Below are positions 5,593-27,386 of a stretch of DNA of 29,834 bases, one piece after another (within the stretch, counting starts at the first letter, position 1; each line of letters opens with the position of its first letter). This stretch comes from a virus, in the IMG/VR virus record IMGVR_UViG_2889178456_000001; one strand, 5' to 3'. The notes below the pieces were generated by a model, which worked only from the letters and a program-made list of their open reading frames with translations, did not search any database and was not told the DNA's origin. The translations under genes and the position numbers were made by a program.

Positions 5593-6768
5593 ATGAAAAA
5601 GCCAACAATACTCGATTCATTGAAACGTATAGTCGGAATTAGTGATCCCTATCAGGACATGACAATTTCAGCCCCAGAGGGGAAGGCATCCGCTAGACTG
5701 AAAGAAAAAATAGATATCTCCGCTCCAGAGGGAAAAGTTGCTGCTAGACTGAAGGAAGAAACCGCTCAAAAATCAAATAAACAGCGGGTTAATGTAACTG
5801 GCGCCATGCAAAGCTTGGAAAGCAGAAATTACATGATTTCAAAGCTTGCTGAGCAGAAGAGCTTAGCCGCAGAGTTGGGTGTCGAAGGTAAACTGAAAGA
5901 ACCAGATGTTCTAGAAGGCACTAGCCTTAGTATTAACAAACCCCTCCGTGCCACTGAAGCGAAATTTAACAACAGAAGCTTCACTTTGGAGCTTAAAACG
6001 GGACAAGTTGATACTATAAAGGTCAAACATCAAGGAACCTTGATATTCAATGAAGATAGCTTCTTCGTCGATGACGAATATGACACTATCGAACCGTTCC
6101 ATGAAACCGACCATCTAAACCTCTCGAAAGATGATCGAGCGAACCTTCTTACTAAGGTTGTGACCCCACTTATCGAAGGCCTTAGCTGCGACAATAGAAA
6201 CTTGCTCGCGGCTGTAAGACACAACGACACAATAATCTCTGAGGTCAGAGCAAATATCGCTGAAGAAAATCTGGTTGAATTTGACCCCTCCTTCAATGAG
6301 GTCGCGAATGCGGAGGTATCGTTGGAAGAGTTTTGCCTGAAGGTTGATGCGCTAGTCGATAACATAGAAAAGCTCAAAACGATGACACCTGAGGGAACCG
6401 GACAAAGCTTCGTCTACGAAATGGAAGATGGAACCGTTGAGCATTCTGTCCCAGGTAAACCAATATCGGTAGAATCTCGCAATACTGAAGCTGGTCGCCA
6501 GACCGCCCTAATGCTAGGGAATATCGAAACCGTGGTATACGGACACCGCATGGTCACGGAAGCAGGTGTGGATGAGGATGACTATGTTATTCTCTCCAAG
6601 TACACCCATGAAAGTGGCAGTGAGGACTATGGAAAGATACTGGCCACCGTAGTGAAGAAGGCGGAAGTCGCTATAGAAGAGAAGCGCATAGAGCTGGAAG
6701 CTTACCTCTCTTCGGCAATCCGTGCAGCTACTGCTGAGCTATCAACACCCGCGCAGCCAACGCCTTGA
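5593..6768 (+). CDS. Acidic hypothetical protein with an N-terminal 17-aa tandem repeat; tail AELSTPAQPTP
   Basis: Long ORF; GGAG RBS before ATG 5593 (MKKPT). Confidence 0.85.
   Translation: MKKPTILDSLKRIVGISDPYQDMTISAPEGKASARLKEKIDISAPEGKVAARLKEETAQKSNKQRVNVTGAMQSLESRNYMISKLAEQKSLAAELGVEGKLKEPDVLEGTSLSINKPLRATEAKFNNRSFTLELKTGQVDTIKVKHQGTLIFNEDSFFVDDEYDTIEPFHETDHLNLSKDDRANLLTKVVTPLIEGLSCDNRNLLAAVRHNDTIISEVRANIAEENLVEFDPSFNEVANAEVSLEEFCLKVDALVDNIEKLKTMTPEGTGQSFVYEMEDGTVEHSVPGKPISVESRNTEAGRQTALMLGNIETVVYGHRMVTEAGVDEDDYVILSKYTHESGSEDYGKILATVVKKAEVAIEEKRIELEAYLSSAIRAATAELSTPAQPTP
5665..5760 (+). repeat. In-frame tandem duplication with a 51-nt period
   Basis: ISAPEGKASARLKEK-ID-ISAPEGKVAARLKEE, with synonymous differences between the copies. 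Confidence 0.85.
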
Positions 6769-6862
6769 TAGCACCTCAGACAGATAACAGAGGTCTTTAA
6801 CTCTCCTTTGGTTGTTTGAATTTCTGGTTCACGGTAAGTTCCTGTAATCTACAGAGGAATTT

Positions 6863-7447
6863 ATGATGAATTTTTTTAGAACTTTAGCGAAGATCACGGA
6901 TCTAGAAGGTGCGAAGTGGTCCTATCTCACCGGCGTGGAAAAAGCTGTCGTTGTACTTGCCGTTGGTGTGTTTGCCACGACAGTATCGGCTGCTACGATT
7001 GACACGGTTGAGAACACTAAGGGCGGCATGGAGCTGCGCGACAAATCATTGGTAGCTCTCTCCAGCAACTTGGAGACGGATCACTTTAGCGAGGCCCCGA
7101 TCAAGGATCTCAGATATCCCGCCTCCGAAAAAGTAATTAGCAATTCAGGTAGGTCCCTGTATTTGGCTCGGGTGTCTAAGCTGCCCTCACATGTTCTTAA
7201 GGACGGCTTTGGCCGAGATCTTCTGGATATCGATGGCATCGTACACTTTACTGAAAAGCGAACTCACGAACTGTTCGTGGCATGCATGTCTGATGGAGAT
7301 CGGGTGAAGCCATATTTTGCGAATATTCAGCTAGAGAAAGTCTTTGCAGGTGAAGTTATCTCGGATGAACTGATTGATATCGATATTGCCACGAAGGGCG
7401 GCCAATCCATGCAAGGCATGTGTGAGCGCGTTGTAAAGGCAGCCTGA
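6863..7447 (+). CDS. Membrane-anchored/exported hypothetical protein
   Basis: 194 aa; GAGGA RBS; hydrophobic AVVVLAVGVFATTVSAA; two Cys in the C-terminal domain. Confidence 0.8.
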   Translation: MMNFFRTLAKITDLEGAKWSYLTGVEKAVVVLAVGVFATTVSAATIDTVENTKGGMELRDKSLVALSSNLETDHFSEAPIKDLRYPASEKVISNSGRSLYLARVSKLPSHVLKDGFGRDLLDIDGIVHFTEKRTHELFVACMSDGDRVKPYFANIQLEKVFAGEVISDELIDIDIATKGGQSMQGMCERVVKAA

Positions 7448-7493
7448 GTGCCATCGTCACTGATCGGCCCGTGAACACGCCAAAATAGTTTGC

Positions 7494-7530
7494 AAAAGGC
7501 GCTCTGGAAAATAACCTAGGGCGCCTTTTT
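7494..7530. terminator. Bidirectional intrinsic terminator
   Basis: AAAAGGCGCTCTGG-loop-CCTAGGGCGCCTTTTT between convergent genes. Confidence 0.75.
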
Positions 7531-7538
7531 AGTTGGTC

Positions 7539-7763
7539 TTATTTTGCTGTCCGTACCTTCTTCTCGAGTTCGCGCAACTTTGCCACGGCATCCTGTGCAG
7601 ACTTCAATTCATCGAGCGCGGTTTGCAGCTGCTCAGCAATCTCATTGTACTCAACATGGTTCAGGCGCTCGAGTTGGGCAGCTACAGTCTCACTGCGAGC
7701 AATGGCGTCATCCACTCGGCTCGAAACGAACAGAAGTGGCCTGAAAAAGCTAGGTCGTGGCAT
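7539..7763 (-). CDS. Small coiled-coil protein
   Basis: 74 aa with a heptad pattern (IAEQLQTALDELKSAQDAVAKLRELEKK); ends at the terminator. Confidence 0.6.
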   Translation of the reverse strand: MPRPSFFRPLLFVSSRVDDAIARSETVAAQLERLNHVEYNEIAEQLQTALDELKSAQDAVAKLRELEKKVRTAK

Positions 7764-7822
7764 TCTAGGAACCTCAATGTTTGCCTAGACCTTATCGCAA
7801 ATAGACGGATAATTCCAAGTGC

Positions 7823-8371
7823 TTACATTCCTGGAACACGTCGCTGAGCACGACCGATGATCTCTGAGTGATCTAGACCAGCCTCTCTCTCGGCCGCCAA
7901 GATCATTTGGGCAGTTACCCTGACATCTACAGCCGGATCATGGTGACCAGTAAGGTCCAGATCAAGGAAATCTGCCATGCGCTTCAATCCGTACCCCGGT
8001 TGTCCGGGCCAGGCGTGCTTTGCCAAGGTCTGGCTGTTCTTCCAGCTCCACGGAGGCGACGTAACTTCATATTTTTCGCAAGCAGCCGACATAGCTTTGA
8101 AATCATCTGGACCATGACCGTAGACAGTGCAGCCGTAAAGACGCGGCCCAACAACTTCCAGAAATTGAGGAAACAGCGCCTGCCCTTTTAGGTCTTCATC
8201 TGTCAGGCCCAGCATCTTGGCGTTGAAGGCATCCAGGGGCTCCTCGGGATTAAGCAAAGACGACGAGGTTTGGATCTCGTCACCATTTACATAAGCGATG
8301 CCGACCCAGCAAATGCTTGCCGGGTTGCCGTTCGCTTTCTCAATGTCGATAACTGCAAATCTTGGGCTCAT
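7823..8371 (-). CDS. DEDDh (DnaQ-like) 3'-5' exonuclease; tail RRVPGM
   Basis: ExoI VIDIEKAN, ExoII GHGPDDF, ExoIII HHDPAVD; AAGGA RBS. Confidence 0.85.
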   Translation of the reverse strand: MSPRFAVIDIEKANGNPASICWVGIAYVNGDEIQTSSSLLNPEEPLDAFNAKMLGLTDEDLKGQALFPQFLEVVGPRLYGCTVYGHGPDDFKAMSAACEKYEVTSPPWSWKNSQTLAKHAWPGQPGYGLKRMADFLDLDLTGHHDPAVDVRVTAQMILAAEREAGLDHSEIIGRAQRRVPGM

Positions 8372-8380
8372 TGGATTTCC

Positions 8381-8698
8381 TTACGGGGATGGAGCTGCGG
8401 CAGGCTCTTCATACCATTCAGGCAGCTCATCAGTGGCGACCAAGCCAAATTCAGCGGGCTCATCAGGGGCTCCATTGGCGTGAACAACACTGTCCTCAAG
8501 GTCTTCTATGTCTTCCCAGGTTAGTTTATGCCATGCACGTTCATAGAGGGCATGCGCACGAATGATTTCCCCCTCCTCCCTATCGTAGACAAAGCGGGTT
8601 GGCATCAGCCTGTCACCATCATCCGTACCAATGAAGTGCTCCCAAGCCTCGCTGCCATCCATGTCCGGGTCTGCGATTAGGTATCTTTTGTCTGTCAT
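8381..8698 (-). CDS. Acidic hypothetical protein; tail EEPAAAPSP
   Basis: Probable start ATG 8698 (MTDKRY) after AGGAG; 105 aa. Confidence 0.75.
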   Translation of the reverse strand: MTDKRYLIADPDMDGSEAWEHFIGTDDGDRLMPTRFVYDREEGEIIRAHALYERAWHKLTWEDIEDLEDSVVHANGAPDEPAEFGLVATDELPEWYEEPAAAPSP

Positions 8699-8808
8699 CT
8701 GGAAAGTCTCCTGTTTCTCTCTCAACGAAATACGGCGGCTGGTTGCAAGTGTCCCGGCCGCCGTATTCATGTCTCATATCGCCCATAGTCGAGCGAAAAT
8801 ATGATCGC

Positions 8809-9933
8809 TTACATTGTCATGGTTGCTGCCTCAGGAAGATCCCGCTCTTCGCCCTTGTAGGCAAGCGTATCCATCCCGCAGGCTTCCTCACCTACGTCGG
8901 TGCGCACGCACTTATACACGGGCTGGTAGAGCGAACCACCGCGATTGGCATTCATATATTCCACCTCGATCAGGTCACCTGGTTTAGGGATATCTGCATT
9001 CGATGGGATCGTGACATTGCCCACATCAGTCCAGGCTCCGTCTGCATTCATCATCTCGAGGGAAACGCTGCGTTTCGTACCGTTTCCCCCCTTCACGCGA
9101 GCCGTGCAGCTCGCGATGAACTTGTACTTGCGGGCCTGACCGCCTGAGCTGGGACGACCCGGCTCGTAAACGCTGTCGGCATGACGCGCCACAAACCCTT
9201 CACCGCCAGACTTGAAGATCTCGTTGTGACGTTTTTCAAAGAACTCGGAAGCTGGCAGTGGAACCTCCACACGAAGTGCTTTCATATTTTGTCCTGCGGC
9301 GTAGTCGCGGAGGCCCTCTAAGATATCTGATCGCTCCGCAAAAGTGGCACTCTCGTCCATTTGGGGGTACTTGATAACATCGAAGATCACGATGTGATCG
9401 CCCATGTCCTCGCCATCAAGAATGACCTCTTCGCCGTCGCCAATGTCGAGAGCGAATTTTGCGATGTCATCAGCAATCTTCTTGTTAACGCCAACCTCCA
9501 GACCATTCCGGTTTGCGAACTGGATGCCCTCAGGTCCGATCACTACCCCGCGTCTCTCGCCATCATATTTTTCTCCGATCAGCCAATCGTCTCCGAAACC
9601 ACGTGCTTCATTAGCTTCGACTGTGTTCAATAGCTGTGGCCTGAATGCTGTCTTGCGGCCTGCATTTTCAGCCGAGGAGAAAACTTCACCGGAAATCTCT
9701 GTCGTATAGCCTTTTCGATCTCTCTTCTCTTTCAGGGCTTTGTTGTAGGCCTTCAGTGCTTCTTCGTATGGAACAGGCCCCTTGGTCTTCTCGCCCTCCC
9801 TCAGGGCCTTACCCCGTCTACCATGCTGAGTGAAAACACGGTATCCATCCCCATCTCGCTTTAGCTGCATGCTGTATTGCTTGTCAGACGATCCCTCAGT
9901 CAGAAATAGATCGATGCTCAGTTCTTCGCTCAT
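8809..9933 (-). CDS. WGR-domain ATP-dependent DNA ligase-like protein; tail PEAATMTM
   Basis: N-terminal WGR-like domain (SSDKQY...HGRRG...KRDRKGY); nucleotidyltransferase motifs EKYDGER, LDGE, FDV, EGFV, KYKF; C-terminal OB fold (IEVEY...LYQP...RTD). Confidence 0.85.
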   Translation of the reverse strand: MSEELSIDLFLTEGSSDKQYSMQLKRDGDGYRVFTQHGRRGKALREGEKTKGPVPYEEALKAYNKALKEKRDRKGYTTEISGEVFSSAENAGRKTAFRPQLLNTVEANEARGFGDDWLIGEKYDGERRGVVIGPEGIQFANRNGLEVGVNKKIADDIAKFALDIGDGEEVILDGEDMGDHIVIFDVIKYPQMDESATFAERSDILEGLRDYAAGQNMKALRVEVPLPASEFFEKRHNEIFKSGGEGFVARHADSVYEPGRPSSGGQARKYKFIASCTARVKGGNGTKRSVSLEMMNADGAWTDVGNVTIPSNADIPKPGDLIEVEYMNANRGGSLYQPVYKCVRTDVGEEACGMDTLAYKGEERDLPEAATMTM

Positions 9934-10064
9934 GACGTTCTCCTTTTGTTCTCTTTATAGATAAGCCTAATTTCGAAAGCTGCGCAATAAGTTTTAGCTA
10001 ACCTCGAAGCAAATATTTAAACATCTTCATGATAAGGTTGGGCATCAATAAACTGGATTTGATT

Positions 10065-10415
10065 ATGGATCATTATAATAAACTCACCCCGGCTGAAGCC
10101 GAACGCCTTGCAATGCTTTCTGAAGAAGCAGGTGAAATTGTACAAGCGGTATCAAAGATACTTCGTCATGGATACGCCAACTATCATCCTGACGATCCGA
10201 CTACCGACAACCGGGATCTCTTGTCCGCCGAAATCACAGATATGATGGCTGTTCTAAGCATCATGGAAAACAATAACGACCTCACCACTGACTTTGATCT
10301 GGACTTTGATGACAGCAATGAAAGCATCAAAAAAGCTATTGCAAAGAAGATGCGGTATGCTCGCCACCAGAACGATGAAACCATCAAGGCTGGTGACGCA
10401 ATAGAGTACAAATAA
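10065..10415 (+). CDS. MazG-like nucleotide pyrophosphohydrolase
   Basis: LSEEAGEIVQAVSKILRHG...AEITDMMA matches the EExxE...ExxD all-alpha NTP-PPase pattern; probable start 10065. Confidence 0.8.
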   Translation: MDHYNKLTPAEAERLAMLSEEAGEIVQAVSKILRHGYANYHPDDPTTDNRDLLSAEITDMMAVLSIMENNNDLTTDFDLDFDDSNESIKKAIAKKMRYARHQNDETIKAGDAIEYK

Positions 10416-10499
10416 GCTATCGACGCTATACCTGAGATATCAATAGTTGAAATCTCGTAAATTTCTACAAGTTAACTAAGATACTAGGAAAGATATCTA

Positions 10500-10886
10500 A
10501 TGACTTGCAGAACAGCGATCATTCATAGCGCTTCGGTCCTTCCGCACGGAAAGAACTTCACAATGCGACTGATCCTGCCCGGAGATATCTCGGGCGGGCC
10601 CTCCTCCGGGATCCATAATGGAGATCCTGTGGTGGAATTTTATGATGCAGACATGAAGGGAAGCTGTGTCGACGGAGAATGCTACGGAAGATTTGTAGCA
10701 GACTACTATATGACAACGCTAGAGAGCGCCTTTGAGAGGTCAGAGACAATGTCCCTTCATGATGCTGCCGGTGTATGGACCCTGGATGCAAACGCGACAG
10801 AAGATGCCTTCAAAACACTCGCGGATTGGAAGCTTGATTTGATTGAGTTCGATCCGGAACCCGCTGAAATGGGGATGTCTTTCTAG
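10500..10886 (+). CDS. Hypothetical protein of the PxVEFYD family; tail EPAEMGMSF
   Basis: AGGA RBS; GDPVVEFYDAD...YGRFVADYY motif; paralogue at 14895..15272. Confidence 0.8.
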   Translation: MTCRTAIIHSASVLPHGKNFTMRLILPGDISGGPSSGIHNGDPVVEFYDADMKGSCVDGECYGRFVADYYMTTLESAFERSETMSLHDAAGVWTLDANATEDAFKTLADWKLDLIEFDPEPAEMGMSF

Positions 10887-10957
10887 GTAATTAATTCAGC
10901 CTTCGTTTGTCAATTTGCAAAGCGGTGCATATCTAATATGCATTGGAGGAATTCCTT

Positions 10958-11263
10958 ATGCAAAACGAATTTGTCGAAGACGCACCATTTATTCATATCG
11001 AAGGCGATGACCTGAAAGAGAGTGACCTTTCATCTGGCACATATCGGAAGCCGGTAACGAACATCGTGCTAGCGAGAATCCCAAAGAAGGTTTGGAATTA
11101 CTTTGATGACGCTGCGGTTTCCGTAATTAAATCCTACAGGGCAGCTGATAAGAAAGTAGAACAGATCTTCGATGGCGAGATTGCCGGGGGACCGCTTGGT
11201 CGTATGATGTCCGCCTTGGGTCGCGACGTTGAAGTCAACAAACAACCTGGCATGGGTCGCTAA
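10958..11263 (+). CDS. Hypothetical protein; tail KQPGMGR
   Basis: GGAGG RBS before ATG 10958 (MQNEFV). Confidence 0.75.
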   Translation: MQNEFVEDAPFIHIEGDDLKESDLSSGTYRKPVTNIVLARIPKKVWNYFDDAAVSVIKSYRAADKKVEQIFDGEIAGGPLGRMMSALGRDVEVNKQPGMGR

Positions 11264-11407
11264 ACCTCTTGGGGATCGATCTCCATATATCTACAGGATA
11301 TTACGAGATCCACATGGTGCCTGGCGTAGCGGCTGCGCTATATGTTGCGTATTTCATACTACCTTACAAATAATAAATGAAACACAAAATTTAAGTGAGG
11401 CTTAATC

Positions 11408-12226: not shown

Positions 12227-12291
12227 TATCTTAAGCGCTCCTGTGGTATTACCATTTCAGACATACGCGATTTTTCCACAGGAAACCCACG

Positions 12292-12444
12292 ATGTTTAAC
12301 AATCAGATGACCCCACAGGAAATTATCAAAGCTTGGCAGAGCCAGGCAAGGTCTGACCTCGAAGCAGCTAGAAGCATGCGCAATCATTGGCAGAGTGAAG
12401 TTGAGCGCCTTGAGAGGAAGATCGACAGCCTAGATGGCTCCTGA
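12292..12444 (+). CDS. 50-aa coiled-coil miniprotein (below the ORF-track cutoff)
   Basis: MFNNQMTPQEIIKAWQSQARSDLEAARSMRNHWQSEVERLERKIDSLDGS*; AGGA RBS; WQS occurs twice. Confidence 0.6.
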   Translation: MFNNQMTPQEIIKAWQSQARSDLEAARSMRNHWQSEVERLERKIDSLDGS

Positions 12445-12602
12445 GGTCGCTTCAGAGCCAAAGAAGGTCCCCAGCACCCAATCAAACAGCTCTTGGTGGT
12501 CTGAAAACCCTGGATGAGTATAACGGATAACACCATATAAACAGAATGTTCCCGGCATACTAAACATTGAGCGTTGGGAACATTGCCTACCTGATGAGAA
12601 TG

Positions 12603-13027: not shown

Positions 13028-13037
13028 AAGTGCACAT

Positions 13038-14894: not shown

Positions 14895-15272
14895 CTACAT
14901 AGCCATCCCAGGCGTCTGATCATTCTCATAGGTTGCCTGAACCTCACGCAGCATACCAAGAAGGCGACTGCACTGTGACTTGCTGAGTCCCCACTGAGGT
15001 ACATTTACAGTAGTCGATAGATCGATGCCTGCTTTGGCCTCTTCGAGGCGATCTATGAGGTCACCTAGAGGCTCTGACAGCAACTTGTGGCCGTACGCGT
15101 TGCCATCGCGGTCAACATGCCCTCTGTAGTCGGCATCAAATATCTCAACGAGAGGCTCACCTTCTACCTGTTCACTCATGGACATCATTGTAGCGGCCGT
15201 CCACATTCCTGGCTCCACAACACGAGCCGTCAGCTTTTTGCCGAGCTCACGCTTAAAATTCATCTGGTTCAT
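14895..15272 (-). CDS. Hypothetical protein of the PxVEFYD family (paralogue of 10500); tail DQTPGMAM
   Basis: Probable start ATG 15272 (MNQMNF); GEPLVEIFDADYRG...DGNAYG. Confidence 0.75.
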   Translation of the reverse strand: MNQMNFKRELGKKLTARVVEPGMWTAATMMSMSEQVEGEPLVEIFDADYRGHVDRDGNAYGHKLLSEPLGDLIDRLEEAKAGIDLSTTVNVPQWGLSKSQCSRLLGMLREVQATYENDQTPGMAM

Positions 15273-15402
15273 TCCGACACCCTTATTCGCTCTTATGCAG
15301 ATAAGGTTGCTCTGAACCTGAAATCCGCAACTCGCGCTTCTCGGTCTTTTCATATTTCGGAAATGAACTATCATGCCCTCTCAGGAAGAGAACGAGGACA
15401 GC

Positions 15403-15699
15403 ATGATCAAATCAGAGTTGGTAAGTCGCATCGCAGAAGAGTTCGCGCTTTCACGCAAAGTGTCCGAACGTGCGGTAAGTCAGATTTTCGACGAGATCAT
15501 TGAGCAGATGGCATCTGGTGGGCGTGTCGAAATTAGAGACTTTGGTGTCTTTGGCACATCGGAATATGATTCCAGCGTAGGACGGAACCCACGCACAGGA
15601 GAGAGTGTAGAACTCCCCGCCCGAACGCTTCCTAGGTTCAAGGCGGGAAGAGGGTTGAGTAAACGGCTCAATCAGGACTTCGAAAAAGAGAACTCTTAA
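15403..15699 (+). CDS. ihfB: Integration host factor beta / HU-family nucleoid protein
   Basis: MIKSELVSRIAE N-terminus, RVEIRDFGVF, GRNPRTGE arm, PRFKAG; GAGGA RBS before 15403. Confidence 0.8.
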   Translation: MIKSELVSRIAEEFALSRKVSERAVSQIFDEIIEQMASGGRVEIRDFGVFGTSEYDSSVGRNPRTGESVELPARTLPRFKAGRGLSKRLNQDFEKENS

Positions 15700-16364
15700 G
15701 CCACACCGGGAGACGACGATGGTCCCGTTAGCCTATCGTACTCCGGATCATCTGGTGACAGAGACTCGCTTAAATCGAAATCCTTGCATCCCCTATAGAA
15801 GCCATCTTTGATTTCTTCCCAGTTTTGGAGCAATCTTTCTTCACGCATCTTCGAGGGTGGCGTGTAGCCTTCCTGAAACACAGCAATCAGATCAGCAGGC
15901 ATGGCTGGGTTCGCTTCGTCCGCAAAAGCTTGCTGGATGATGGACCACTGGATATCCGCATCACGAAGTGCAATGCGCTCTTCCAGACTGCTCCGTGTGA
16001 TTTCAATCATCTCGCCCAGATCGTTCTCGATGGATACCAGGTGACCAGCCTGCATTTCGGGTAGCTTCGACAAGTCCAGGGGATCGAACTGAAGATCTTT
16101 AAGGGGCTCATCGGTGGGTCCGAAAGCAACGTTCCCACTTGATAGGGCTGCCTGATACTTGTGCTTCAGCTCGTCCCACATCTGGATAATCACTTCATCG
16201 CTGAATCTCACAAGGTGAGACATGTGAGTTTGTAGGGCCTGAACCCCAGGATTGCGTACACCTAGGCTGATCGCATGGTTTGCCATATGTGTGATTACAT
16301 CACTTTTTGGGACGCGGATCTTTTCCCCATCAAAGGTCTTAATATCAAGTTGTGTATCGGTCAT
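15696..16364 (-). CDS. Hypothetical protein with two repeated domains; tail GPSSSPGVA
   Basis: 222 aa; the halves IKTFDGEKIRVPKSDV...IIQMWDELKHKY and IENDLGEMIEITRSSL...LLQNWEEIKDGF resemble each other. Confidence 0.8.
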   Translation of the reverse strand: MTDTQLDIKTFDGEKIRVPKSDVITHMANHAISLGVRNPGVQALQTHMSHLVRFSDEVIIQMWDELKHKYQAALSSGNVAFGPTDEPLKDLQFDPLDLSKLPEMQAGHLVSIENDLGEMIEITRSSLEERIALRDADIQWSIIQQAFADEANPAMPADLIAVFQEGYTPPSKMREERLLQNWEEIKDGFYRGCKDFDLSESLSPDDPEYDRLTGPSSSPGVA

Positions 16365-18765: not shown

Positions 18766-18905
18766 TACCTTCCAAAAATAATTAAATTTATCCTTGATTA
18801 CTGAAATCTTCCTGTTATCAGTCCTTTCAGAAGATCATTTATTCTTGTGGGTTGCGCCGGTTGCGGCAAATTTAACAAGGAAAGCAAAACACTTTGAGGC
18901 AGATC

Positions 18906-19466
18906 ATGGATATTGAGACAGTAACCCAACCATATTTTTTCACACGTGACGACCTGATGGGTCAGATCAACGACCGCAACTGCAAGACGCGCGCGGTAGG
19001 CAACTACCCAGAAGGCACAACTGTTTTGATGCCACTCGAGCACGGCGGATGTGCCCTCATGTTCCTACGCGAAGACGAGGAAGTTGCTGAGTTCATCTGC
19101 GCAGGTAATTTCGGAAGCTGGCTCAAGACATATGCAGAAGCCTGGATCGTGAACACAGAAACCCACTATGAGGCTGATGGCGGCCCCGAGGTGGCACTGA
19201 CCGCTGAGATCTTCCAGGTCGCATGTGAGAATGGCCTGTCTGTCTGCATGGGTGGAAACGAAAAGCCCCTGCTGATGGTGATGTCCGAGCAGGAAAGCTC
19301 ATTTGGAACCAGCACAGTCCATGTTGAAGCATTCGATATCAGCGCGATCAACGATGTCGTAGGCGAGCAGGTTGTTGATTTCGATACTCTGCCTTCTCCC
19401 GAGGCCGATGCGGAGTTTTCAGCCGCCTTCGATACTGAGCCTGAGCAGATGGGTTTCGGCTTCTAA
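18906..19466 (+). CDS. Very acidic hypothetical protein; tail EPEQMGFGF
   Basis: GAGG RBS before ATG 18906 (MDIETV); followed by a terminator. Confidence 0.8.
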   Translation: MDIETVTQPYFFTRDDLMGQINDRNCKTRAVGNYPEGTTVLMPLEHGGCALMFLREDEEVAEFICAGNFGSWLKTYAEAWIVNTETHYEADGGPEVALTAEIFQVACENGLSVCMGGNEKPLLMVMSEQESSFGTSTVHVEAFDISAINDVVGEQVVDFDTLPSPEADAEFSAAFDTEPEQMGFGF

Positions 19467-20184: not shown

Positions 20185-20208
20185 TTAAGCAATAAAGGAG
20201 GCGACCCA

Positions 20209-20589: not shown

Positions 20590-20593
20590 CATC

Positions 20594-20734
20594 ATGCTCA
20601 AGAAAATTCTCAACCTTATGCTACCACGCGAACCCGGAACTACGTACTTCGGTGAAGCAGAAGGCGCACTTCGATTTCTTATTCTTGGCACAGTAGCTTC
20701 TGTATGCGCTGCTGTGTATTATTTCACGACATAG
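20594..20734 (+). CDS. Small membrane protein (46 aa)
   Basis: ATG 4 nt after the upstream stop; C-terminal TM FLILGTVASVCAAVYYF. Confidence 0.55.
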   Translation: MLKKILNLMLPREPGTTYFGEAEGALRFLILGTVASVCAAVYYFTT

Positions 20735-20800
20735 GATAGGGAAGTTTTGGCTGAGGGCCCTTTCTCGCTATCTCCAAGATGAAGGCCCCCAGCGCCCATC

Positions 20801-21586
20801 TCAGGGGCTTGGAGACGTAGCTTCCTGATCGGACACACGCTTATCCATCAGCTCTTTGATAGGAGCTGTTAGATCTTCCATCTCATCTTCCCGAATTGGC
20901 ATTTTGCCACCCTCAGGAATTCTCTTCAGGCTATCGAAGTCCGGCTTCGGATAGGCCAATTCTAGCATGCGGTTGTAAACCTTCTCGAAGAGAACGGCAT
21001 CACAGATGAATGTAAAATCAGGCTTCGACTTCCTGTAGGGCTTGTACTGAAGCGCAAAAGGCTCACCCTCGTAGTAGACAACACGAGTCCCGACTGGCGT
21101 ATCGGAACAGAGCCATGCGCTCACCGATTTCGTGGTAAACCAATCCCGCAGCCCAGCTTCGGATGGCAGATACTCGAATTCAGTTCCATCACGGAAGCCC
21201 ATTGCTTCGGCAAGATAGTAGATATCAGGTTCACCTTCGACTTCCTGGTCCACTAGCGCCTCGAGAACCTCAGGCACTTCAGGGTTTCCTGCTTTGGCGT
21301 AGGCGATCAGCTCATGGTACGCGGGGCGATCCTCGGCCACCAGATATTCGTGGCCATCCTCACCTTCGACAAAGCGCCACTCGATATTATCGAAGACGAA
21401 ATGGGTAATGGAAGAACTCTCAATCACCTGCAAGTCGTGCTTCTTGCCATGCTCGATGTAAGCCGCCCAATCAGCGACAGGATCGCCAGTCATGAAGCGC
21501 ACTTCATTGTCCGGACCCTTGAGAACGATGCCTCTATAGGTATCTCGGACGCCTTCATCATAATCAATCGAAAGGTTATACGTCAT
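20801..21586 (-). CDS. Phage/plasmid-type hypothetical protein, probably two domains; tail DQEATSPSP
   Basis: AAGGA RBS; the C-terminal half carries WLCSDTPVG...RKS, a WxCTDTxVG-like motif recalled from phage hypotheticals. Confidence 0.8.
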   Translation of the reverse strand: MTYNLSIDYDEGVRDTYRGIVLKGPDNEVRFMTGDPVADWAAYIEHGKKHDLQVIESSSITHFVFDNIEWRFVEGEDGHEYLVAEDRPAYHELIAYAKAGNPEVPEVLEALVDQEVEGEPDIYYLAEAMGFRDGTEFEYLPSEAGLRDWFTTKSVSAWLCSDTPVGTRVVYYEGEPFALQYKPYRKSKPDFTFICDAVLFEKVYNRMLELAYPKPDFDSLKRIPEGGKMPIREDEMEDLTAPIKELMDKRVSDQEATSPSP

Positions 21587-21636
21587 AATTTCGTTTCCTT
21601 ATAAAATTGGCTGGTGACCCTCAGGGCCAAAATAAA

Positions 21637-22494
21637 TTAGGCGATCTTCAGCAGTACGGCCGTGGCATCGTCGTATTGCTTCGTGCGGGGCGCCTTGCTC
21701 AGAAGTGCGTCCTCATCCTCAAATTGTCTCAGGGAGCGAATAAGCTCTTCCGGATCGCCGTTCTCCAACTTACTGACAGCGGATGCGACCGTCTCCAGGC
21801 CATAGCTCTCGAACAGAGCATAGAAGCCATCTGAGGCCAAAAGAACTCGATCACCACTTTTGAGTTTCATGTCTCGCCTCGTCGCGAAGATCCAGGGATC
21901 ATCATTCGGCGTAAGAGTATGGTATCCGGTTGGGGTGTTTGCCCGAGACCTATTTTTGCGGATCGTGGGCAATGTCAACTCGCGGGCCTTGGCAACATCT
22001 CCAGTCTTGCGGATGTTCTCACTCATTTCTCTGATAGCGATCTGGTCGAGCTGCTCTAGGACGTCTGGCTTGAAGACCTTTTCCGTCGAGCCGTCACGAC
22101 GAACAATATAGGCCTGGCAGTCAGCAAGCTGATAGAAGCTATAGAGGCCACCTCCGGCGGGCTCGATAAAGACCATTCCCGATGATGGGATTGTATGAGG
22201 GGCGTGGTCCGGCCTGTCGTAATTTTCGCCAACCTTCTTTACGGCCGCACTCAGCTTATCGATAAACGTATCGCCTTCTGCCCCACCCAGATGAAAGAAA
22301 ACCTGGGACAGCAACCAGTTTGCGTCCTGATAGCCAGTCTCGGCACCACTAACCAAACCTGTGGCACCATCGAAGACCCCTACCCCATCACTGGAGTAAA
22401 GCACGCGGTCCTCACTGATCATCTTTGCTGGGCTGGTGGTTGTCACAGTCCTCAGAAGCTGCAATCCGCTCTTCGTGGTGCTGGATGTGGTCAT
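21637..22494 (-). CDS. PP2C/SpoIIE-like metal-dependent phosphatase
   Basis: Motifs SEDR, VFDGATG, LADC, LLASDGF, YDDATAV. Confidence 0.85.
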   Translation of the reverse strand: MTTSSTTKSGLQLLRTVTTTSPAKMISEDRVLYSSDGVGVFDGATGLVSGAETGYQDANWLLSQVFFHLGGAEGDTFIDKLSAAVKKVGENYDRPDHAPHTIPSSGMVFIEPAGGGLYSFYQLADCQAYIVRRDGSTEKVFKPDVLEQLDQIAIREMSENIRKTGDVAKARELTLPTIRKNRSRANTPTGYHTLTPNDDPWIFATRRDMKLKSGDRVLLASDGFYALFESYGLETVASAVSKLENGDPEELIRSLRQFEDEDALLSKAPRTKQYDDATAVLLKIA

Positions 22495-22510
22495 ATTAGG
22501 TTCTTTCTAC

Positions 22511-23392
22511 TTATGGGGTCGGGGAAGATGGCTCTTCATCCATCTCATCGCGCTCGTAGATGCGCCGACCGACTTCATTGATCTCGCTCATAAGGTCGAC
22601 AGAGAAATCGTCGGAGGCCATCATCTGAGGCGCATACTGGATTGCCATAGCATCCATATTGGTTTGCATGATCATCATCTCAGCCGCCGCTTCGATCATG
22701 TCCTTGAAACGAGGCTCATCGATATCATGGCCATTTTGAAGGCTTACAGTGATGATACCCATAATGCTCGCTGGCGATGGCCCTGTTTGCCCATGAACGC
22801 GCACCGAACCACCCGAGCTTGCACTGGCAAACCAGAAGTCCGCAGATTTGCTTGCGGGGTCGGTCACCTGTTCAAACGGTTTAAGCTCCGCCCGCTGCAA
22901 GCAATAGGCCCGGATTTCTTCCGCCATTTGTGTTGGTGTCTTTTTCTTGCCAGGCATGAAGGGCGCGTACTTGGATTTCACCATCAACTGATAGGCCTTC
23001 TCATGCATTGCCATGAGACCCACAGAAGCATCTTCCCGATGAAGGTGGTTCCGGTACATAGGATGGTTATCTGGAAGCTTTAGCTCTCCTTTGGACACCG
23101 CCCTAAACACGGCCTCCAAGGTAAGCTCATCATCATATTCTTCTTCCCAGAACTCAGACAGCTCCATAAGAAAACGATCAATGCGCCAGTCGCCCTCCTC
23201 ATCACGAGGATAGAAGTCGGTGTAGTCCTCGTAACTCATCGGGATCGGAAAGCTGATGGGCGCCCAGCTATCAGTCGTATGCAGGAACCCGGAGGGGTGT
23301 TTGGTCTCGCTCACCGATTCACGCAGGAAGATCACCCGCACAGGCTGGAAGCTAAGAATCGGCGTACGCGTGATCGCACATGTCATATTCAT
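22511..23392 (-). CDS. Hypothetical protein; tail DEEPSSPTP
   Basis: 293 aa within a minus-strand operon; N-terminal TCAITRTPI motif. Confidence 0.8.
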   Translation of the reverse strand: MNMTCAITRTPILSFQPVRVIFLRESVSETKHPSGFLHTTDSWAPISFPIPMSYEDYTDFYPRDEEGDWRIDRFLMELSEFWEEEYDDELTLEAVFRAVSKGELKLPDNHPMYRNHLHREDASVGLMAMHEKAYQLMVKSKYAPFMPGKKKTPTQMAEEIRAYCLQRAELKPFEQVTDPASKSADFWFASASSGGSVRVHGQTGPSPASIMGIITVSLQNGHDIDEPRFKDMIEAAAEMMIMQTNMDAMAIQYAPQMMASDDFSVDLMSEINEVGRRIYERDEMDEEPSSPTP

Positions 23393-23412
23393 ATTATTGC
23401 TCTCGTCTGAGG

Positions 23413-24159
23413 TTATGGCGCTGGGGGCGTGAGTTCCACTTCAGGCTCAATGGACGCGAATACATCAAATTTTGCAGCAGCATCTTCGCTCTTTGGGCGG
23501 CAAATATTGAGATAGGCATCCTTCGCCTCTAGAGGGCTCACACCACGAACTTCCGTCACAGTCATCCTGCTTTCACGGAACATGTTTGCTGCCTTTTCTT
23601 GAGCCGCGATGCCAAGGTCGATGTCGGCTCGGGAATGACCCGCCGCTTCCATGTTGTTCGCCCACTCTCGCATATAGGCCATATCATCATTGATGAAGAC
23701 GCTTGCAGGGATCAGGAGCTTCTTACTCTTGCGAACCTCAACCATGTCATAGAAAGCGAACTGCTCTGTTTTGGGATCAAGCATCAATTCGGTGCCATCG
23801 AGCCAGGTTTCTTTTTCCATTTCGGATGGAGCCCAGACATCGCAGAGCCCATGACGCATCCAAAGTAGAGAGGTGAACCGGTTAATGCCATCAAGCAAAT
23901 ACGTATTGTGACCAGACGAGGGAAGGAAATTCAGCGGCCCCATAGACGGGAGAACACAGACACCGCTTTTGTCTTCGTCCTTAGGATGCCAGACAACGAC
24001 GTTGCCCATCGGGTAGCCCTTAAAGATGTTCTCGGCAAATGAGATTACATCACTTTTCGACCACGAGTATGGCTCCTGAAGATCTGCGGGAATGACTTCC
24101 GCACTGCTGATGTCGTCAAGGACTTCTTTTAGGCTACATGTGAAGAACTTGGGTTTCAT
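23413..24159 (-). CDS. DUF262 (GmrS/ParB-like) domain protein with degenerate motifs; tail EVELTPPAP
   Basis: IPADLQEPYSW (normally QR), IFKGYPMGNVVVW, YLLDGINRFTSL (normally DGQQR), YLNIC (normally FxxIN). Confidence 0.75.
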   Translation of the reverse strand: MKPKFFTCSLKEVLDDISSAEVIPADLQEPYSWSKSDVISFAENIFKGYPMGNVVVWHPKDEDKSGVCVLPSMGPLNFLPSSGHNTYLLDGINRFTSLLWMRHGLCDVWAPSEMEKETWLDGTELMLDPKTEQFAFYDMVEVRKSKKLLIPASVFINDDMAYMREWANNMEAAGHSRADIDLGIAAQEKAANMFRESRMTVTEVRGVSPLEAKDAYLNICRPKSEDAAAKFDVFASIEPEVELTPPAP

Positions 24160-24234
24160 ATTTTATGCTCTCTGATTACTCGTATGAAATGCCTGCTGCG
24201 GAAGCTTTAATCAAGTTTACTAGGATTTGCCACA

Positions 24235-24246
24235 GATTTATTCATG
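24235..24246. promoter_or_regulatory. Candidate operator GATTTATTCATG (copy 3)
   Basis: Exact 12-mer in the divergent DUF262/nadE intergenic region. Confidence 0.5.
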
Positions 24247-24342
24247 ATAACGGAATTTATATTGTAGACGATCAAGTAAAGCAATGTGTATACCTTATAA
24301 AAATGCAGATAGCATTTTACGAATAGCCATTAGGAAAACGAA

Positions 24343-25332
24343 ATGACAACAGAATTGCGCAATGACATCCTCGACCTTTCTCGGCAGGATAACCTAGGGG
24401 AACTCACCCCGTGGTTTTCCTGCACTCTTGATAACTATGTCCAACAGGGCCGGTATATGAATATCGATGGCCTTGATCAGCTCGGCAATGCGATCATTGA
24501 AGATCTGACCTGTTACCGTCGAGACAATCGCATTGAAACCGTCACCCTAGGCATGTCCGGTGGCGTTGATAGCGCTTTGACAGCAGCCCTGTTTAAAGCT
24601 GCGGGATGGCGCGTTATCGGTTACACGCTTCCGATCCTTCAAGATCCGGCAGAAACTGAGCGCGGTGTAGAGGCATGTAATGCGCTGGGCATCGAGCATT
24701 TTCACATCGACCTCACTCACCAGTATGAAACCATGCTCGTAGCGCTGAGTGGGCACGATCAGCGCCCTGCGGAAAGCACAAAAGAAGCCTCGAACATCCA
24801 GCGCGGTAATATTCGGGCGCGGCTAAGAATGACCACTCTGTACGATCAGGCGCATCGTTATGGCGGGCTGGTTGCTTCCACAGATAACTACTCCGAACTC
24901 GCGGCCGGTTTCTGGACATTGCACGGTGATGTCGGCGATCTCGCCCCTATTCAGTCTCTTTTGAAATCATGGGAGGTACCTGCCCTATCTCGTGCAGTTG
25001 GTGTTCCCGAAAGCACTTGGCGGGCGACCCCTACGGATGGATTGGGAATTTCAGATGGCGATGAGGCTCAATTGGGTGCGACCTACCTCCAGTGGGATCT
25101 TATGCTGCTGCGACTGACTGAGGCAGCAGGCAACCTCCCAGATGGCGGCAGTAAGGATTCCCTGGCGCAAGCGCTAGAGGTTGATGCAGACCCCAAAGCC
25201 CGAGAGGTATTTGAAGCAGTTACCAGCCGCATGGGGAGAACATGGTTCAAGAGAGCCGGGACCATCTGCCTGCCCCACAGTGTTGAACCAAGATTTGCGG
25301 ATTTGCAAGAATTGGACAGACTACTTCGATAA
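24343..25332 (+). CDS. nadE: NH3-dependent NAD+ synthetase
   Basis: PP-loop LGMSGGVDSAL, GNIRARLRM, STDNYSE, GFWTLHGDVGD, PTDGL, DEAQLG; no glutaminase domain. Confidence 0.9.
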   Translation: MTTELRNDILDLSRQDNLGELTPWFSCTLDNYVQQGRYMNIDGLDQLGNAIIEDLTCYRRDNRIETVTLGMSGGVDSALTAALFKAAGWRVIGYTLPILQDPAETERGVEACNALGIEHFHIDLTHQYETMLVALSGHDQRPAESTKEASNIQRGNIRARLRMTTLYDQAHRYGGLVASTDNYSELAAGFWTLHGDVGDLAPIQSLLKSWEVPALSRAVGVPESTWRATPTDGLGISDGDEAQLGATYLQWDLMLLRLTEAAGNLPDGGSKDSLAQALEVDADPKAREVFEAVTSRMGRTWFKRAGTICLPHSVEPRFADLQELDRLLR

Positions 25333-25362
25333 AATCAGGGTTATTCGATCCCACTAGAAGAC

Positions 25363-25418
25363 TTATGCATGAATACCAAGGTTTTATCATTGACCGCAGC
25401 TAGGTATTCATGCATAAT
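25363..25418 (+). promoter_or_regulatory. sigma70-like promoter embedded in a perfect 15-bp inverted repeat
   Basis: TTATGCATGAATACC (25363-25377) / GGTATTCATGCATAA (25403-25417); TTGACC(25390-25395)-N17-CATAAT(25413-25418). Confidence 0.7.
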
Positions 25419-25456
25419 GTTGACAACGAATTTGATTACCCCCTCGGGAGACCCAG

Positions 25457-25774
25457 ATGTTTGTCACTATTTGTCGAAACGTTCGCTACAAGACGCTCCC
25501 GAAACAGAAATCCTGGGGCGAAATCGCATCTCCGCGCACCTCGAAGAACTTCTCTCACTATGCGCTGGTGATCGCCCAGCCGCATGGCAAGGGAGGCAGT
25601 ATCGACGATAACTCAATCGAAGACTGGAATGCGCTCAAGGAGAAGTTTGGCGGCGAGGCATTCGTGTTTACGGCTGCTGAATGGAAGGCACTTTGCGGAA
25701 CCGATAATGATAATATGGCGCCGGTGGGTGCGCAGTTTACCAGGCACTACCATATTCTGCTCTTTAATATGTGA
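25457..25774 (+). CDS. Hypothetical protein
   Basis: 105 aa; GGGAG RBS; downstream of the promoter. Confidence 0.7.
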   Translation: MFVTICRNVRYKTLPKQKSWGEIASPRTSKNFSHYALVIAQPHGKGGSIDDNSIEDWNALKEKFGGEAFVFTAAEWKALCGTDNDNMAPVGAQFTRHYHILLFNM

Positions 25775-25815
25775 ACCGACTACCACTGAACTGTTATTTT
25801 ATCCGGAGAGATTTT

Positions 25816-26712
25816 ATGAAGACCGCAACCAAGGATATTACCGTCCTGAAGAACGAGAACGATCAGATCCTGGGTGTATGCCTCGGATGGGATTTCACTG
25901 CCGAGCACGAAATGGGCTTCAAGCGGTTCTCGCGCCTCATGGGCATTGGCGAACGCGCGAATAGCCACGAGGGCAAGCAGATGCTAAAAGAAGCTGGCTT
26001 CAAGCGAGGCTTGTTTGGTGCCACCAAGCTGCCCTCTGTTGGTATTGAATCCCGTATGGTGACCGAGATTCCGGAAAGCATGCTGCTGCTCAAGGAATTT
26101 GGCAACACAACGAAGACATTGGACGCCGAGACACGCCTTGTGTTCTCGAGTAACCCTGAAGAGTTCGCTGATCGCAATTCGAAGGTCATCCTTCATTACG
26201 TGCCTCACCGCAAATACTCTCGGGATGACAAACTGCCCAAAATGAAGGCCGCTTGGCGCGATGGTCGCTTCATCGTGCGCGCATTCTCGGATGAAGATCG
26301 CGATGCCCTGCGCTTGGTCTACAAGGCAATGATGACTGGTGATCTGGCCTTCGGGGCAGCCGCCAATATCAATCCGATTGGGAACAGCGGCCCTGCCCTT
26401 GTTATCGCGTCTCGCTTGAGCTCCGAGACCAAGACAAATGTGCTGAAAGCTGATGTGGACCACTACAAGCTCCTGAAGGCCGCTGACGATAGCGGGATCG
26501 CCAAGACTCTCGAGAAGGCAGGCAAGCGGTACTTTGCCCTGTCACCGAGATGGAAGGCAGACAACTTCAAGGATCGGGATACTCGGTTCAATGTCGTCTT
26601 CTGGCTCAATCCGATGCAGCAGTCCAGCTACACGACTGGCTACTTCACGGTCGAAGAACTGGAAGCCTGGGCCAAGGATGAAGGCCCTGTCGTTAAGCAA
26701 GCGGCCGCATAA
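25816..26712 (+). CDS. Conserved megaplasmid/phage-type hypothetical protein
   Basis: GGAG RBS before ATG 25816; motifs LGWDFTAEHEMG, YFALSPRW, FWLNP, GYFTVEELEAW...GP. Confidence 0.85.
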   Translation: MKTATKDITVLKNENDQILGVCLGWDFTAEHEMGFKRFSRLMGIGERANSHEGKQMLKEAGFKRGLFGATKLPSVGIESRMVTEIPESMLLLKEFGNTTKTLDAETRLVFSSNPEEFADRNSKVILHYVPHRKYSRDDKLPKMKAAWRDGRFIVRAFSDEDRDALRLVYKAMMTGDLAFGAAANINPIGNSGPALVIASRLSSETKTNVLKADVDHYKLLKAADDSGIAKTLEKAGKRYFALSPRWKADNFKDRDTRFNVVFWLNPMQQSSYTTGYFTVEELEAWAKDEGPVVKQAAA

Positions 26713-26750
26713 ATACGGTATTGTAACCGATCAAATTAAGGACATACGAA

Positions 26751-27386
26751 ATGACCAAAACTCGCTACGAACCCGGTAAAGAATACGCCTTTGTGGACGT
26801 GAAATATGAGCGCCCAGAGCCAATGTTCACCAGCCTTTATGTGCCTTGGAGCGACACCCTCAAAGAGATCGTTGTCCGCCGCATGAAGTGTGTAGAGCAC
26901 CATCGAGTACCCGGTGATTGGGATGACGAGCTAAAATATGATGGCTTCATTTTCCAAAACACCGAGGGTGGCGAGGAACGCTGGTACAACCAGTACCCGC
27001 GTGCCAGCTATGGTCAAACAACGGACGACGAGAACTGGAAGATCAAGGTTGCCGAGGATCGCAACGGCGTCAAACTCAGCGAAGAAGCGGCCGATAAGTA
27101 CAGCGACACTGAGATCCTGTGGGGCGTCCAAGATGCTGCGAAGTATCTAGACATCATTCATAATGGGGTGAACCCTCGCCATAGCAGAGATGAACTTGAA
27201 CCAGATCAAAAGGTTGCACTGCAAGGATTCTATGATCAGCTGAAGCAAGCCGTTGAGGAAAAAATGGGATGCCAGTTTGAGCTTGAAGAATTGATCGTTC
27301 AGCCTATCGATAAGAGTAAGCCGCCCCGTCACACTGGCATCCTTCACCACAAGATGAGTGAACCGGCGCCTACGCCTGCGCCCTAA
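26751..27386 (+). CDS. Hypothetical protein; tail SEPAPTPAP
   Basis: AAGGA RBS; motif WYNQYPRASYGQ. Confidence 0.85.
   Translation: MTKTRYEPGKEYAFVDVKYERPEPMFTSLYVPWSDTLKEIVVRRMKCVEHHRVPGDWDDELKYDGFIFQNTEGGEERWYNQYPRASYGQTTDDENWKIKVAEDRNGVKLSEEAADKYSDTEILWGVQDAAKYLDIIHNGVNPRHSRDELEPDQKVALQGFYDQLKQAVEEKMGCQFELEELIVQPIDKSKPPRHTGILHHKMSEPAPTPAP

Follow-up and report, generated by a model that had tools for sequence, protein, structure and literature searches.

Six proteins encoded in a 29,834-nucleotide stretch of DNA (hereafter the window) end in a proline, then a serine, threonine or alanine, and a final proline directly before the stop codon (Table 1), and the question that this locus raises is why proteins that appear unrelated should finish alike. 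The original prediction placed such ends on six genes, and all six translations and the final codons given for them agree with our reading; public gene calls on the same contig give six carriers with identical ends and the lengths shown in Table 1. The looser ends that the prediction listed as near-matches (YAP, PGVA and PALR) are also present. The source contig belongs to the marine bacterium Sulfitobacter sp. R18_1 and is 819,584 bp long, of which we read record positions 22.3–140.9 kb (~119 kb). Tail counts were made on the 125 ORFs of record positions 31.8–126.2 kb, with 252 kb of chromosome, one contig from Tropicibacter sp. R16_0, a related bacterium of the same sequencing project, as the control (230 ORFs); the position test for P[STA]P used the 42 window ORFs of at least 80 aa. 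All evidence on the tails is computational.

Table 1 Tail-bearing proteins and near-matches in the window (positions count from the first nucleotide of the window).
Feature	Position	Strand	Basis
391-aa acidic orphan, pI 4.9, ending ...AELSTPAQPTP-stop (TGA)	5593..6768	+	Translation and gene call
105-aa acidic protein, pI 4.3, ending ...YEEPAAAPSP-stop, with a WGR ligase and a DEDDh exonuclease on either side	8381..8698	-	Translation
261-aa acidic protein, ending ...DQEATSPSP-stop, closing a four-gene run	20801..21586	-	Translation
293-aa acidic protein P0001, ending ...DEMDEEPSSPTP-stop; tail is residues 286-293, past the last helix	22511..23392	-	Translation
248-aa DUF262/GmrSD_N-only protein, ending ...EPEVELTPPAP-stop	23413..24159	-	Pfam PF03235, E 5.6e-9
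211-aa protein, ending ...MSEPAPTPAP-stop	26751..27386	+	Translation
168-aa acidic protein, ending ...LEPQPHVGYAP-stop; looser member with E-P start and terminal Pro, none at -3	4555..5061	+	Translation
222-aa protein, ending ...GPSSSPGVA-stop; near-match with a Pro/Ser-rich tail, without terminal Pro	15696..16364	-	Translation

Tails of this kind occur far above chance, as had been claimed. Among the 42 window ORFs, 6 of 15 P[STA]P tripeptides lie exactly at the C-terminus, whereas their frequency inside the proteins would put 0.05 there (Poisson P ~2e-11). In the larger set P.P closes 12 of the 125 ORFs, a place where its internal frequency would put 0.31 (P ~1e-15); the control has none in 230 (Fisher 2.5e-6). 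Shuffling the last 12 residues within each protein gave a mean of 1.3 P.P ends and a maximum of 6 over 5000 trials, so the register is tied to the terminus beyond what tail composition accounts for. A terminal proline, found in 23 of the 125 ORFs (18%) where 5.4 were expected, is the most enriched feature (3.6% in the control), and the frequency of proline is 0.18 at −1, 0.13 at −3 and 0.10 at −5, with 0.07–0.09 at −2, −4 and −6 and 0.044 overall. Within the last 14 residues the EP dipeptide is enriched 3.8-fold and P[STA]P 20-fold (1.3-fold and 2.3-fold in the control); the tail often opens with [DE]-E-P, as in YEEPAAAPSP and DEEPSSPTP, and acidic residues peak at 18–23% at positions −9 to −13, against a background of 13%. 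A second class of tail, M/F-x-M/F, has the same −3/−1 geometry and ends 5 of the 125 ORFs and none of the 230 in the control, which fits recognition of a hydrophobic-x-hydrophobic-COOH end. Judged from these sequences, the excess of P-x-P ends looks like a shared label.

The pattern spans record positions ~32–126 kb (~95 kb), within a foreign-looking island, which is GC-poor, measures at least 95 kb and bears a type IV-A CRISPR system. The proposal that the tail is element-wide did not hold up: only about 10% of the ORFs carry it, and the Cas, T1SS, NadE, H-NS and HU proteins of the island lack it. The proteins that do carry it are all acidic (pI 4.1–5.1 in 12 of 12, whereas 36% of the other ORFs fall below 5.5), and neither signal peptides nor RTX (GGxGxD) repeats were found in any of the 12. 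In their last 12 residues they hold 0–5 acidic residues, with a net charge of −5 to 0 in 10 of the 12, and none is Arg-rich. That they are unrelated was borne out by an all-against-all BLASTP, which returned a single paralogue pair; nearly all are orphans, so that few independent comparisons can be made. The 391-aa carrier matched no Pfam or PHROG family, and plasmids, viral contigs and 401 genomes of the family yielded no relative of it; the 261-aa carrier matched phrog_4518 weakly. Several carriers resemble intracellular enzymes (DUF262, metallophosphatase, HNH); the earlier DUF262-like call was right in that the Pfam GmrSD_N match is real, modest though it is (E 5.6e-9).

Comparison of relatives indicates how these tails change. 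The tail of the 105-aa carrier is identical in two variants of at least 90% identity from other samples, that of the 168-aa looser member is retained in a variant, and a variant fragment of the 261-aa carrier ends ...ATPPSP, so that PSP is kept. In a 162/167-aa family of ~30% identity the ends are PAP, PAP, PRP, TAP and PSP, with the terminal proline retained in five of five. Close variants generally differ by A/S/T swaps at X or by the gain or loss of an AP unit (APAPAPAP versus APAPAP) while the P-x-P end is maintained. A few lose a proline: close variants of the 211-aa carrier end ...DPAPTLAP (P to L at −3) and ...EPAPTPAI (P to I at −1), so proline is not strictly retained there. One tail is frameshifted, and in a metagenome homologue of the DUF262 carrier (58% identity), which ends ...DAPAPGR, PAP is present but not terminal. 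The tails evolve faster than the protein bodies. Because distant homologues of P0001 (23–36% identity) end ...ERD or ...EAD without its 11-residue tail, and because its AlphaFold model (mean pLDDT 79.7; no fold match in the PDB) renders the tail as a low-confidence coil beyond the last helix, the tail is, on these comparisons and this model, an add-on to the fold and not part of it.

Rapid change of this kind would be expected if the tails were a neutral by-product, arising by terminal GCN-CCN slippage or from a bias in composition among orphan genes that evolve fast, and serving no function, and the differing number of AP units among close variants and the loss of some prolines point the same way. 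The original prediction of a peptide-level motif and not a DNA repeat was confirmed, however: codons differ, even within one tail, no shared DNA motif was found around the carriers' stops, and a C-rich stretch terminates at the stop codon. Retention of the terminal proline at ~30% identity also speaks against neutrality, and neither the strict link to acidic carriers nor the excess over within-tail shuffles is expected from slippage; we consider this reading quite unlikely. A degron may be added as a minor possibility. Known bacterial C-terminal degrons have small non-polar end residues and not an acidic-Pro end, and the tails do not resemble the ssrA-like type (..LAA or ..VAA, read by ClpX), since they end in proline after polar or acidic residues. 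A virion-packaging tag is weakened by the gene content: no Pfam or PHROG match to a capsid, portal, terminase or prohead protease was found in the 119 kb read, ten large unknown proteins included.

The position of proline as the last sense codon in 23 of 125 ORFs raises a different possibility, namely that the tail acts through ribosome pausing and not in the finished protein, Pro-stop slowing termination with effects on next-gene coupling, Rho shielding or tmRNA tagging. According to the part of PMC7246954 that cites Hayes et al. 2002, a terminal proline slows peptide release and induces SsrA tagging in E. coli. Of the 23 genes that end in Pro, 15 are followed by a gene in the same direction, at a median gap of 40 nt compared with 84 nt for other genes, and the island encodes its own Pth2. 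Pausing would nevertheless need neither proline at −3 and −5, nor an acidic start, nor acidic carriers, and several carriers close the run of genes in which they lie. Stop choice is not clearly different (TAA in 65% after Pro ends versus 44% for others, P = 0.10), nor is the choice of proline codon (terminal CCC in 10 of 23 versus 24% internally), and we regard a device at the level of translation as very unlikely.

The main rival to a docking function is that the tail is a stabilising cap with no receptor, an acidic X-Pro extension that would shield a floppy C-terminus from exopeptidases and proteases that read C-ends, or keep acidic foreign proteins soluble. Parsell, Silber and Sauer (1990) are reported to have found that polar or charged C-terminal residues guard against C-terminal degradation in E. 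coli; tracts of Pro, Ala and Ser form soluble random coils, and alternating X-Pro spacers such as the EP/KP region of TonB, the APAPAP hinge of OmpA and engineered Pro/Ala/Ser tails are extended, soluble and protease-resistant. Such spacers either link parts within a protein or are long tails of artificial origin, whereas the island tails comprise 2–5 units at the very end and close on proline. It suits a cap that the terminal proline is the most enriched feature, that the tails vary without restriction in length and at X (as in the AP-unit indel), as they would if nothing but composition and the last residue mattered, and that no reader came to light: PDZ, TPR and SH3-like domains were absent from ten large proteins at a lax Pfam threshold. 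A cap leaves unaccounted for the fixation of proline at −3 and −5, the frequent E-P start, the restriction to the island (none in the 230-ORF control) and the parallel M/F-x-M/F class, hydrophobic ends tending to destabilise. We view it as a real but less than probable alternative.

The original prediction had favoured a translocation signal, by which a conjugative type IV secretion system (T4SS) on the same replicon would send the tail proteins into recipient cells. Type IV-A CRISPR systems are typical of conjugative plasmids, and the tails are C-terminal, disordered, acidic upstream, rich in small residues and borne by accessory proteins of a type IV-A CRISPR element. Conjugation systems transfer many proteins, some by C-terminal signals (PMC11288057), and DotM binds the acidic signals at the C-termini of Dot/Icm substrates (PMC5802825). 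The Dot/Icm (IVB) E-block resembles the tails in being C-terminal, disordered, uncleaved, acidic upstream of small residues and common to many unrelated proteins, but it covers ~20 residues, is heavily Glu-rich and has no fixed register, the Glu-rich peptides that DotM binds being more than 20 residues long (PMC5802825), whereas the tails occupy 6–12 residues, have far fewer acidic residues and lock proline at −1, −3 and −5. A Glu-rich block ~10–17 residues from the end is likewise lacking, acidic residues reaching only the 18–23% noted above. In Alphaproteobacteria, type IVA signals are positively charged and rich in Arg, the opposite of the tails, and a net positive, Arg-rich C-terminus is not found among the carriers. 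Generic F/IncN/IncP signals also lean positive or hydrophobic (PMC11288057). For the genes called at record positions 22.3–140.9 kb, Pfam annotation showed no family of VirB4, VirD4/TraG, relaxases or Dot/Icm and no DotL/DotM/DotN or IncI-type T4SS, which counts against a signal for a T4SS, a reading that we hold to be rather unlikely.

A type I secretion system (T1SS) is, by contrast, present in the island, at record positions 32.3–35.3 kb, and comprises an AprD/AprE-like pair, an ABC transporter (563 aa, ABC_membrane and ABC_tran) with a 429-aa membrane-fusion protein that resembles AprE. Directly upstream of the pair, in the usual substrate position, lies a 187-aa acidic carrier ending ...ESDNAPSAP, and this cognate-type pair might read the tail as a secretion signal. 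Signals for T1SSs sit at the C-terminus and are not cleaved off, and those of the PrtD/HasD class need a free end, are acidic upstream and belong to acidic substrates without signal peptides, all of which the tails and their carriers share. The PrtD/HasD-class end, however, has three hydrophobic residues after an acidic one, as in the island's own RTX subtilase (10 GGxGxD repeats, C-terminus ...DIHDFVY), and the P-x-P tails have no such end. With the lack of RTX repeats in the carriers and the likeness of several to intracellular enzymes, we think it improbable that the tail is a T1SS signal.

Taken together, the evidence points most readily, with a probability that we put at about 0.35, to a peptide-level address or docking label with a putative reader. 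The tail would be a short linear motif kept by selection at the extreme C-terminus, having an acidic start (often [DE]-E-P), 2–5 X-Pro units in which X is mostly Ala, Ser or Thr, and a terminal proline with a free carboxylate; as a disordered extension of 6–12 residues it would have been added onto a subset of small, acidic, cytoplasmic, mostly orphan accessory proteins. One partner would bind the extended X-Pro strand together with the terminal carboxylate and so gather unrelated proteins; that the tail is read by a partner at all, we infer. Tails that dock on a hub offer the nearest likeness: the ...DDDIPF end of SSB, sliding-clamp motifs (QLVLGL) and class II PDZ ligands (hydrophobic-x-hydrophobic-COOH) are short and disordered, occur on unrelated proteins, are acidic before the tip and have key −3/−1 positions around a small residue. 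Their tips are large hydrophobics in a defined pocket, whereas here the tip is proline in a low-complexity setting and the hub only putative. This reading must be held cautiously, as the motif consists of P, A, S and T, unlike most docking motifs, constraint is weak at short distance (the proline losses, the frameshifted tail, PAPGR in the 58% homologue), the ten large proteins offered no candidate reader domain, and the T1SS already has a classical DFVY-ended substrate.

Candidate readers of a docking label would be an intracellular hub or an export or transfer machine, either the island's T1SS or a T4SS encoded in another part of the replicon. Should the reader be of the latter kind, which we regard as doubtful, the tails would constitute a new class of C-terminal export or transfer signal, by which a CRISPR-carrying mobile island may export some two dozen proteins, small, acidic and probably serving counter-defence, from the donor or deliver them into recipients, with the M/F-x-M/F tails using the same or a sister reader.

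Translation of the six open reading frames (ORFs) in the window returned exactly the C-termini that had been read from the sequence, and publicly available gene calls for this DNA share their stop codons. Each ends in an acidic, Pro-capped tail (P-x-P-stop). The original prediction that this is a peptide-level motif and not a DNA repeat also held: the final three sense codons differ in every one of the six ORFs, and no common motif was present in the 48 nt before or the 40 nt after the stops. Window base 1 corresponds to base 80,344 of JAGHRG010000001.1 (GCA_017743915.1, 819,584 bp), a Sulfitobacter sp. R18_1 contig, in the same orientation, and P0001, a 293-aa tail carrier, was found there. 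Twelve ORFs of a foreign-looking island on this contig have P-x-P ends, and they are mutually unrelated, as had been proposed for the six in the window, with a single paralogue pair among the 12 in all-against-all BLASTP. Five of the six window carriers lack a Pfam family; the 248-aa carrier is a DUF262/GmrSD_N-only protein (E 5.6e-9), and two others have weak PHROG matches of unknown function.

To place these ends in context, ORFs of at least 80 aa were called with a longest-ORF caller across record positions 31.8–126.2 kb, which yielded 125 ORFs. Of these, 23 end in Pro against 5.4 expected. P-x-P ends number 12, where the frequency of P-x-P inside the proteins predicts 0.31 (Poisson ~1e-15). 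Tails lying upstream of the window were confirmed as well. The frequency of Pro alternates along the tail (0.18, 0.08, 0.13, 0.07 and 0.10 at positions -1 to -5; background 0.044). When the last 12 residues of each protein were shuffled (5000 trials), the average was 1.3 P-x-P ends and the maximum 6, so the register is anchored at the C-terminus over and above what tail composition provides. Acidic residues reach 18–23% at positions -9 to -13, the EP dipeptide is 3.8-fold enriched within the final 14 residues, and [DE]-E-P opens many tails. Past record position 126 kb none of 26 ORFs ends in Pro, and the Cas proteins have no tail. In a control contig from the same sequencing project (Tropicibacter sp. 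R16_0, 252 kb), P-x-P ends were found in 0 of 230 ORFs and terminal Pro in 3.6%. Proteins show no general preference for Pro at the C-terminus, and the bias differs among phyla (PMC7246954). A limited search of the full-text literature uncovered no account of such a tail.

Explanations at the level of DNA (a repeat, a terminator or a rut site) were rejected because the codons differ and the C-rich stretch stops at the stop codon, and so was read-through into the following gene, as the 20- and 16-nt gaps are out of frame. Usage of stop and Pro codons showed no clear difference from other genes. A translation-level device that pauses termination would draw on the terminal Pro itself as its one piece of evidence, and we regard it as very improbable.

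The carriers are 101–395 aa long and uniformly acidic (pI 4.1–5.1 in 12/12, with pI below 5.5 in 36% of other ORFs), and signal peptides and RTX repeats are absent from all of them. An exhaustive HMMER search of 1.8 billion representative proteins recovered 43 relatives of P0001. Eight of these were aligned (23–36% identity); they stop at the last helix or shortly after it (...ERD, ...EAD, ...ITP), all lacking a Pro-rich tail, and P-x-P ends are absent from the 11 genes on the contig of the best relative. In the AlphaFold model of P0001 (pLDDT 79.7, pTM 0.78) the last helix spans residues 265–285 and residues 286–293 form a low-confidence coil. As this confident model had no Foldseek match in the PDB, the predicted fold may be undescribed. 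The N-terminus of P0001 matches phrog_5960.

Comparisons among homologs show how the tail changes. In a family of 162/167-aa proteins, represented by a pair of island paralogues (30% identical), two homologues from metagenomes and one orthologue from another sample, the ends are PAP, PAP, PRP, TAP and PSP, with the terminal Pro invariant. Variants at least 90% identical swap A, S and T at the X positions, with one S-to-P change, and include losses, in which Pro is replaced by L at -3 or by I at -1, or the tail is frameshifted (one case). Exactly one AP unit separates the longest tail, ...EPEAPAPAPAP, from that of a close variant, ...EPEAPAPAP, so that length changes in six-base steps and the end is kept in register. 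The sole close homologue of the DUF262 carrier (58% identity) ends ...DAPAPGR, retaining PAP in a non-terminal position. Taken together, these comparisons indicate that the constraint is mainly on composition and the last residue, and not on a rigid motif. No relatives were found for the 391-aa carrier in plasmids, viral contigs or 401 family genomes, for the 162-aa family in the same 401 genomes, for the ligase in genome_contigs, or for the DUF262 pair in metagenome_contigs; an Atlas search with a 187-aa carrier was uninformative. It is quite improbable, in our estimate, that the tail is a neutral by-product or a degron.

A second class of tails ends in Met/Phe with Gly; M/F-x-M/F ends are present on 5 of the 125 island ORFs versus 0 of 230 in the control. 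The QTPGMAM end may be comparable to QTSMAF, through which the Pol III epsilon subunit binds the clamp, and EQMGFGF may be comparable to ...DDMGFGLFD, the tip of ribosomal stalk proteins in archaea and eukaryotes. One may postulate that the Pro tail is simply a stabilising cap that has no receptor. Such a cap would account for the terminal Pro and for the tolerance of the tail to change; however, it does not explain the register at -3 and -5, why tails start with E-P, the restriction of the tail to the island or the parallel M/F-x-M/F class, and we consider it somewhat unlikely.

Coordinates of tail carriers and other features of the island and adjoining DNA (L-numbers denote stretches of the same contig)
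Feature	Coordinates	Strand	Remarks
391-aa carrier	window 5593-6768	+	
P0001, 293-aa carrier	window 22511-23392	-	
DUF262 carrier, 248 aa	window 23413-24159	-	
ORF with longest Pro tail	L039:7727-8233, record 39.6-40.1 kb		
DEDDh exonuclease	window 7823-8371	-	end ...RRVPGM
WGR DNA ligase	window 8809-9933	-	end ...ATMTM
ORF	window 10500-10886	+	end ...EPAEMGMSF
ORF	window 10943-11263	+	end ...QPGMGR
ORF	window 14895-15374	-	end ...QTPGMAM
ORF	window 18894-19466	+	end ...EPEQMGFGF
Adjacent tRNA-Met(CAT) and tRNA-Arg(TCT)	L040:968-1147, record ~23.3 kb		inside GC-poor island; beside IS605 TnpB/Y1 and type IV-A CRISPR-Cas (DinG-HNH) operon
T1SS pair	L040:10001-12981, record 32.3-35.3 kb		563-aa ABC transporter and 429-aa AprE-like membrane-fusion protein
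RTX subtilase	L037:14010-16607, record 65.7-68.3 kb		865 aa; 10 GGxGxD repeats; end ...DIHDFVY
CCA-adding enzyme	L006:15181-17063, record 126.1-128.0 kb		adjoining M78 peptidase

Contig coverage comprised record positions 31,845–140,902 (assembled) plus 22,343–44,034 (~119 kb, record 22.3–140.9 kb), with GC flat at 47–53% throughout. The covered DNA encodes a type IV-A CRISPR system with DinG-HNH, three copies of IS605 TnpB, and H-NS and HU. Record positions 31.8–126 kb encode a Lar-like protein, NadE, an RNA ligase, a WGR ATP-dependent DNA ligase and Pth2, together with NT5C, DUF4326, GIY-YIG, metallophosphatases, a CobT-like VWA protein and DsbA/DsbD, a set reminiscent of a toolkit for counter-defence and tRNA repair. 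The element looks foreign and plasmid- or phage-like. Megablast of 20 kb of its DNA gave no match among phages and plasmids. The CCA-adding enzyme is nearest to gammaproteobacterial and Vibrio-phage enzymes (~46% identity), and as a route to a related complete element it led only to such genes. The only plasmids reached through NadE were non-syntenic ones of Rhodobacteraceae. The block of CCA enzyme and M78 peptidase also occurs in sample SRR30154000 at 96–99.5% identity, where it contains an inserted additional paralogue of the 162-aa tail family.

The original prediction had the tail direct cargo into recipient cells through a conjugative type IV secretion system (T4SS). The proposed machinery was not found: T4SS, relaxase, replication, integrase and virion genes left no Pfam or PHROG mark in the 119 kb. 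Nor do the tails match either known type of T4SS signal: they are too short and too weakly acidic by comparison with the E-block and opposite in charge (computed over the last 12 residues of the carriers) to type IVA signals. We consider a T4SS signal specifically to be improbable. The island does encode a type I secretion system (T1SS), and the 187-aa carrier gene (...ESDNAPSAP) lies immediately upstream of the ABC transporter gene, at the position of a substrate; however, the evident substrate, the RTX subtilase, has a classical end of its own, and a T1SS signal likewise appears quite improbable.

We tentatively favor, with a probability of about 0.35, an interpretation in which the tail is an address or docking label that would be read at the free C-terminus by a putative partner. 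The features of the tail fit such a label, and secretion-type signals are typically equally loose. Pfam at a lax threshold found no candidate reader domain (PDZ, TPR or SH3) in ten large proteins, and a 575-aa trypsin-like protein lacks PDZ. Shared C-terminal targeting or docking tails are already known, and the present tail would be akin to them.

The carriers are located among counter-defence-type genes (Lar, NadE, RNA and DNA ligases, CCA-adding enzyme and Pth2), and the label could thus be carried by proteins with an early role, or a role elsewhere, as the element spreads. Should the tail have a single reader, a working set of some 12–25 otherwise unannotatable proteins of a large marine mobile element would become definable by sequence alone, and the tail would provide a handle for finding that reader. 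If it is merely a stabilising cap, it would still be a compact natural design rule for the protection of foreign proteins.
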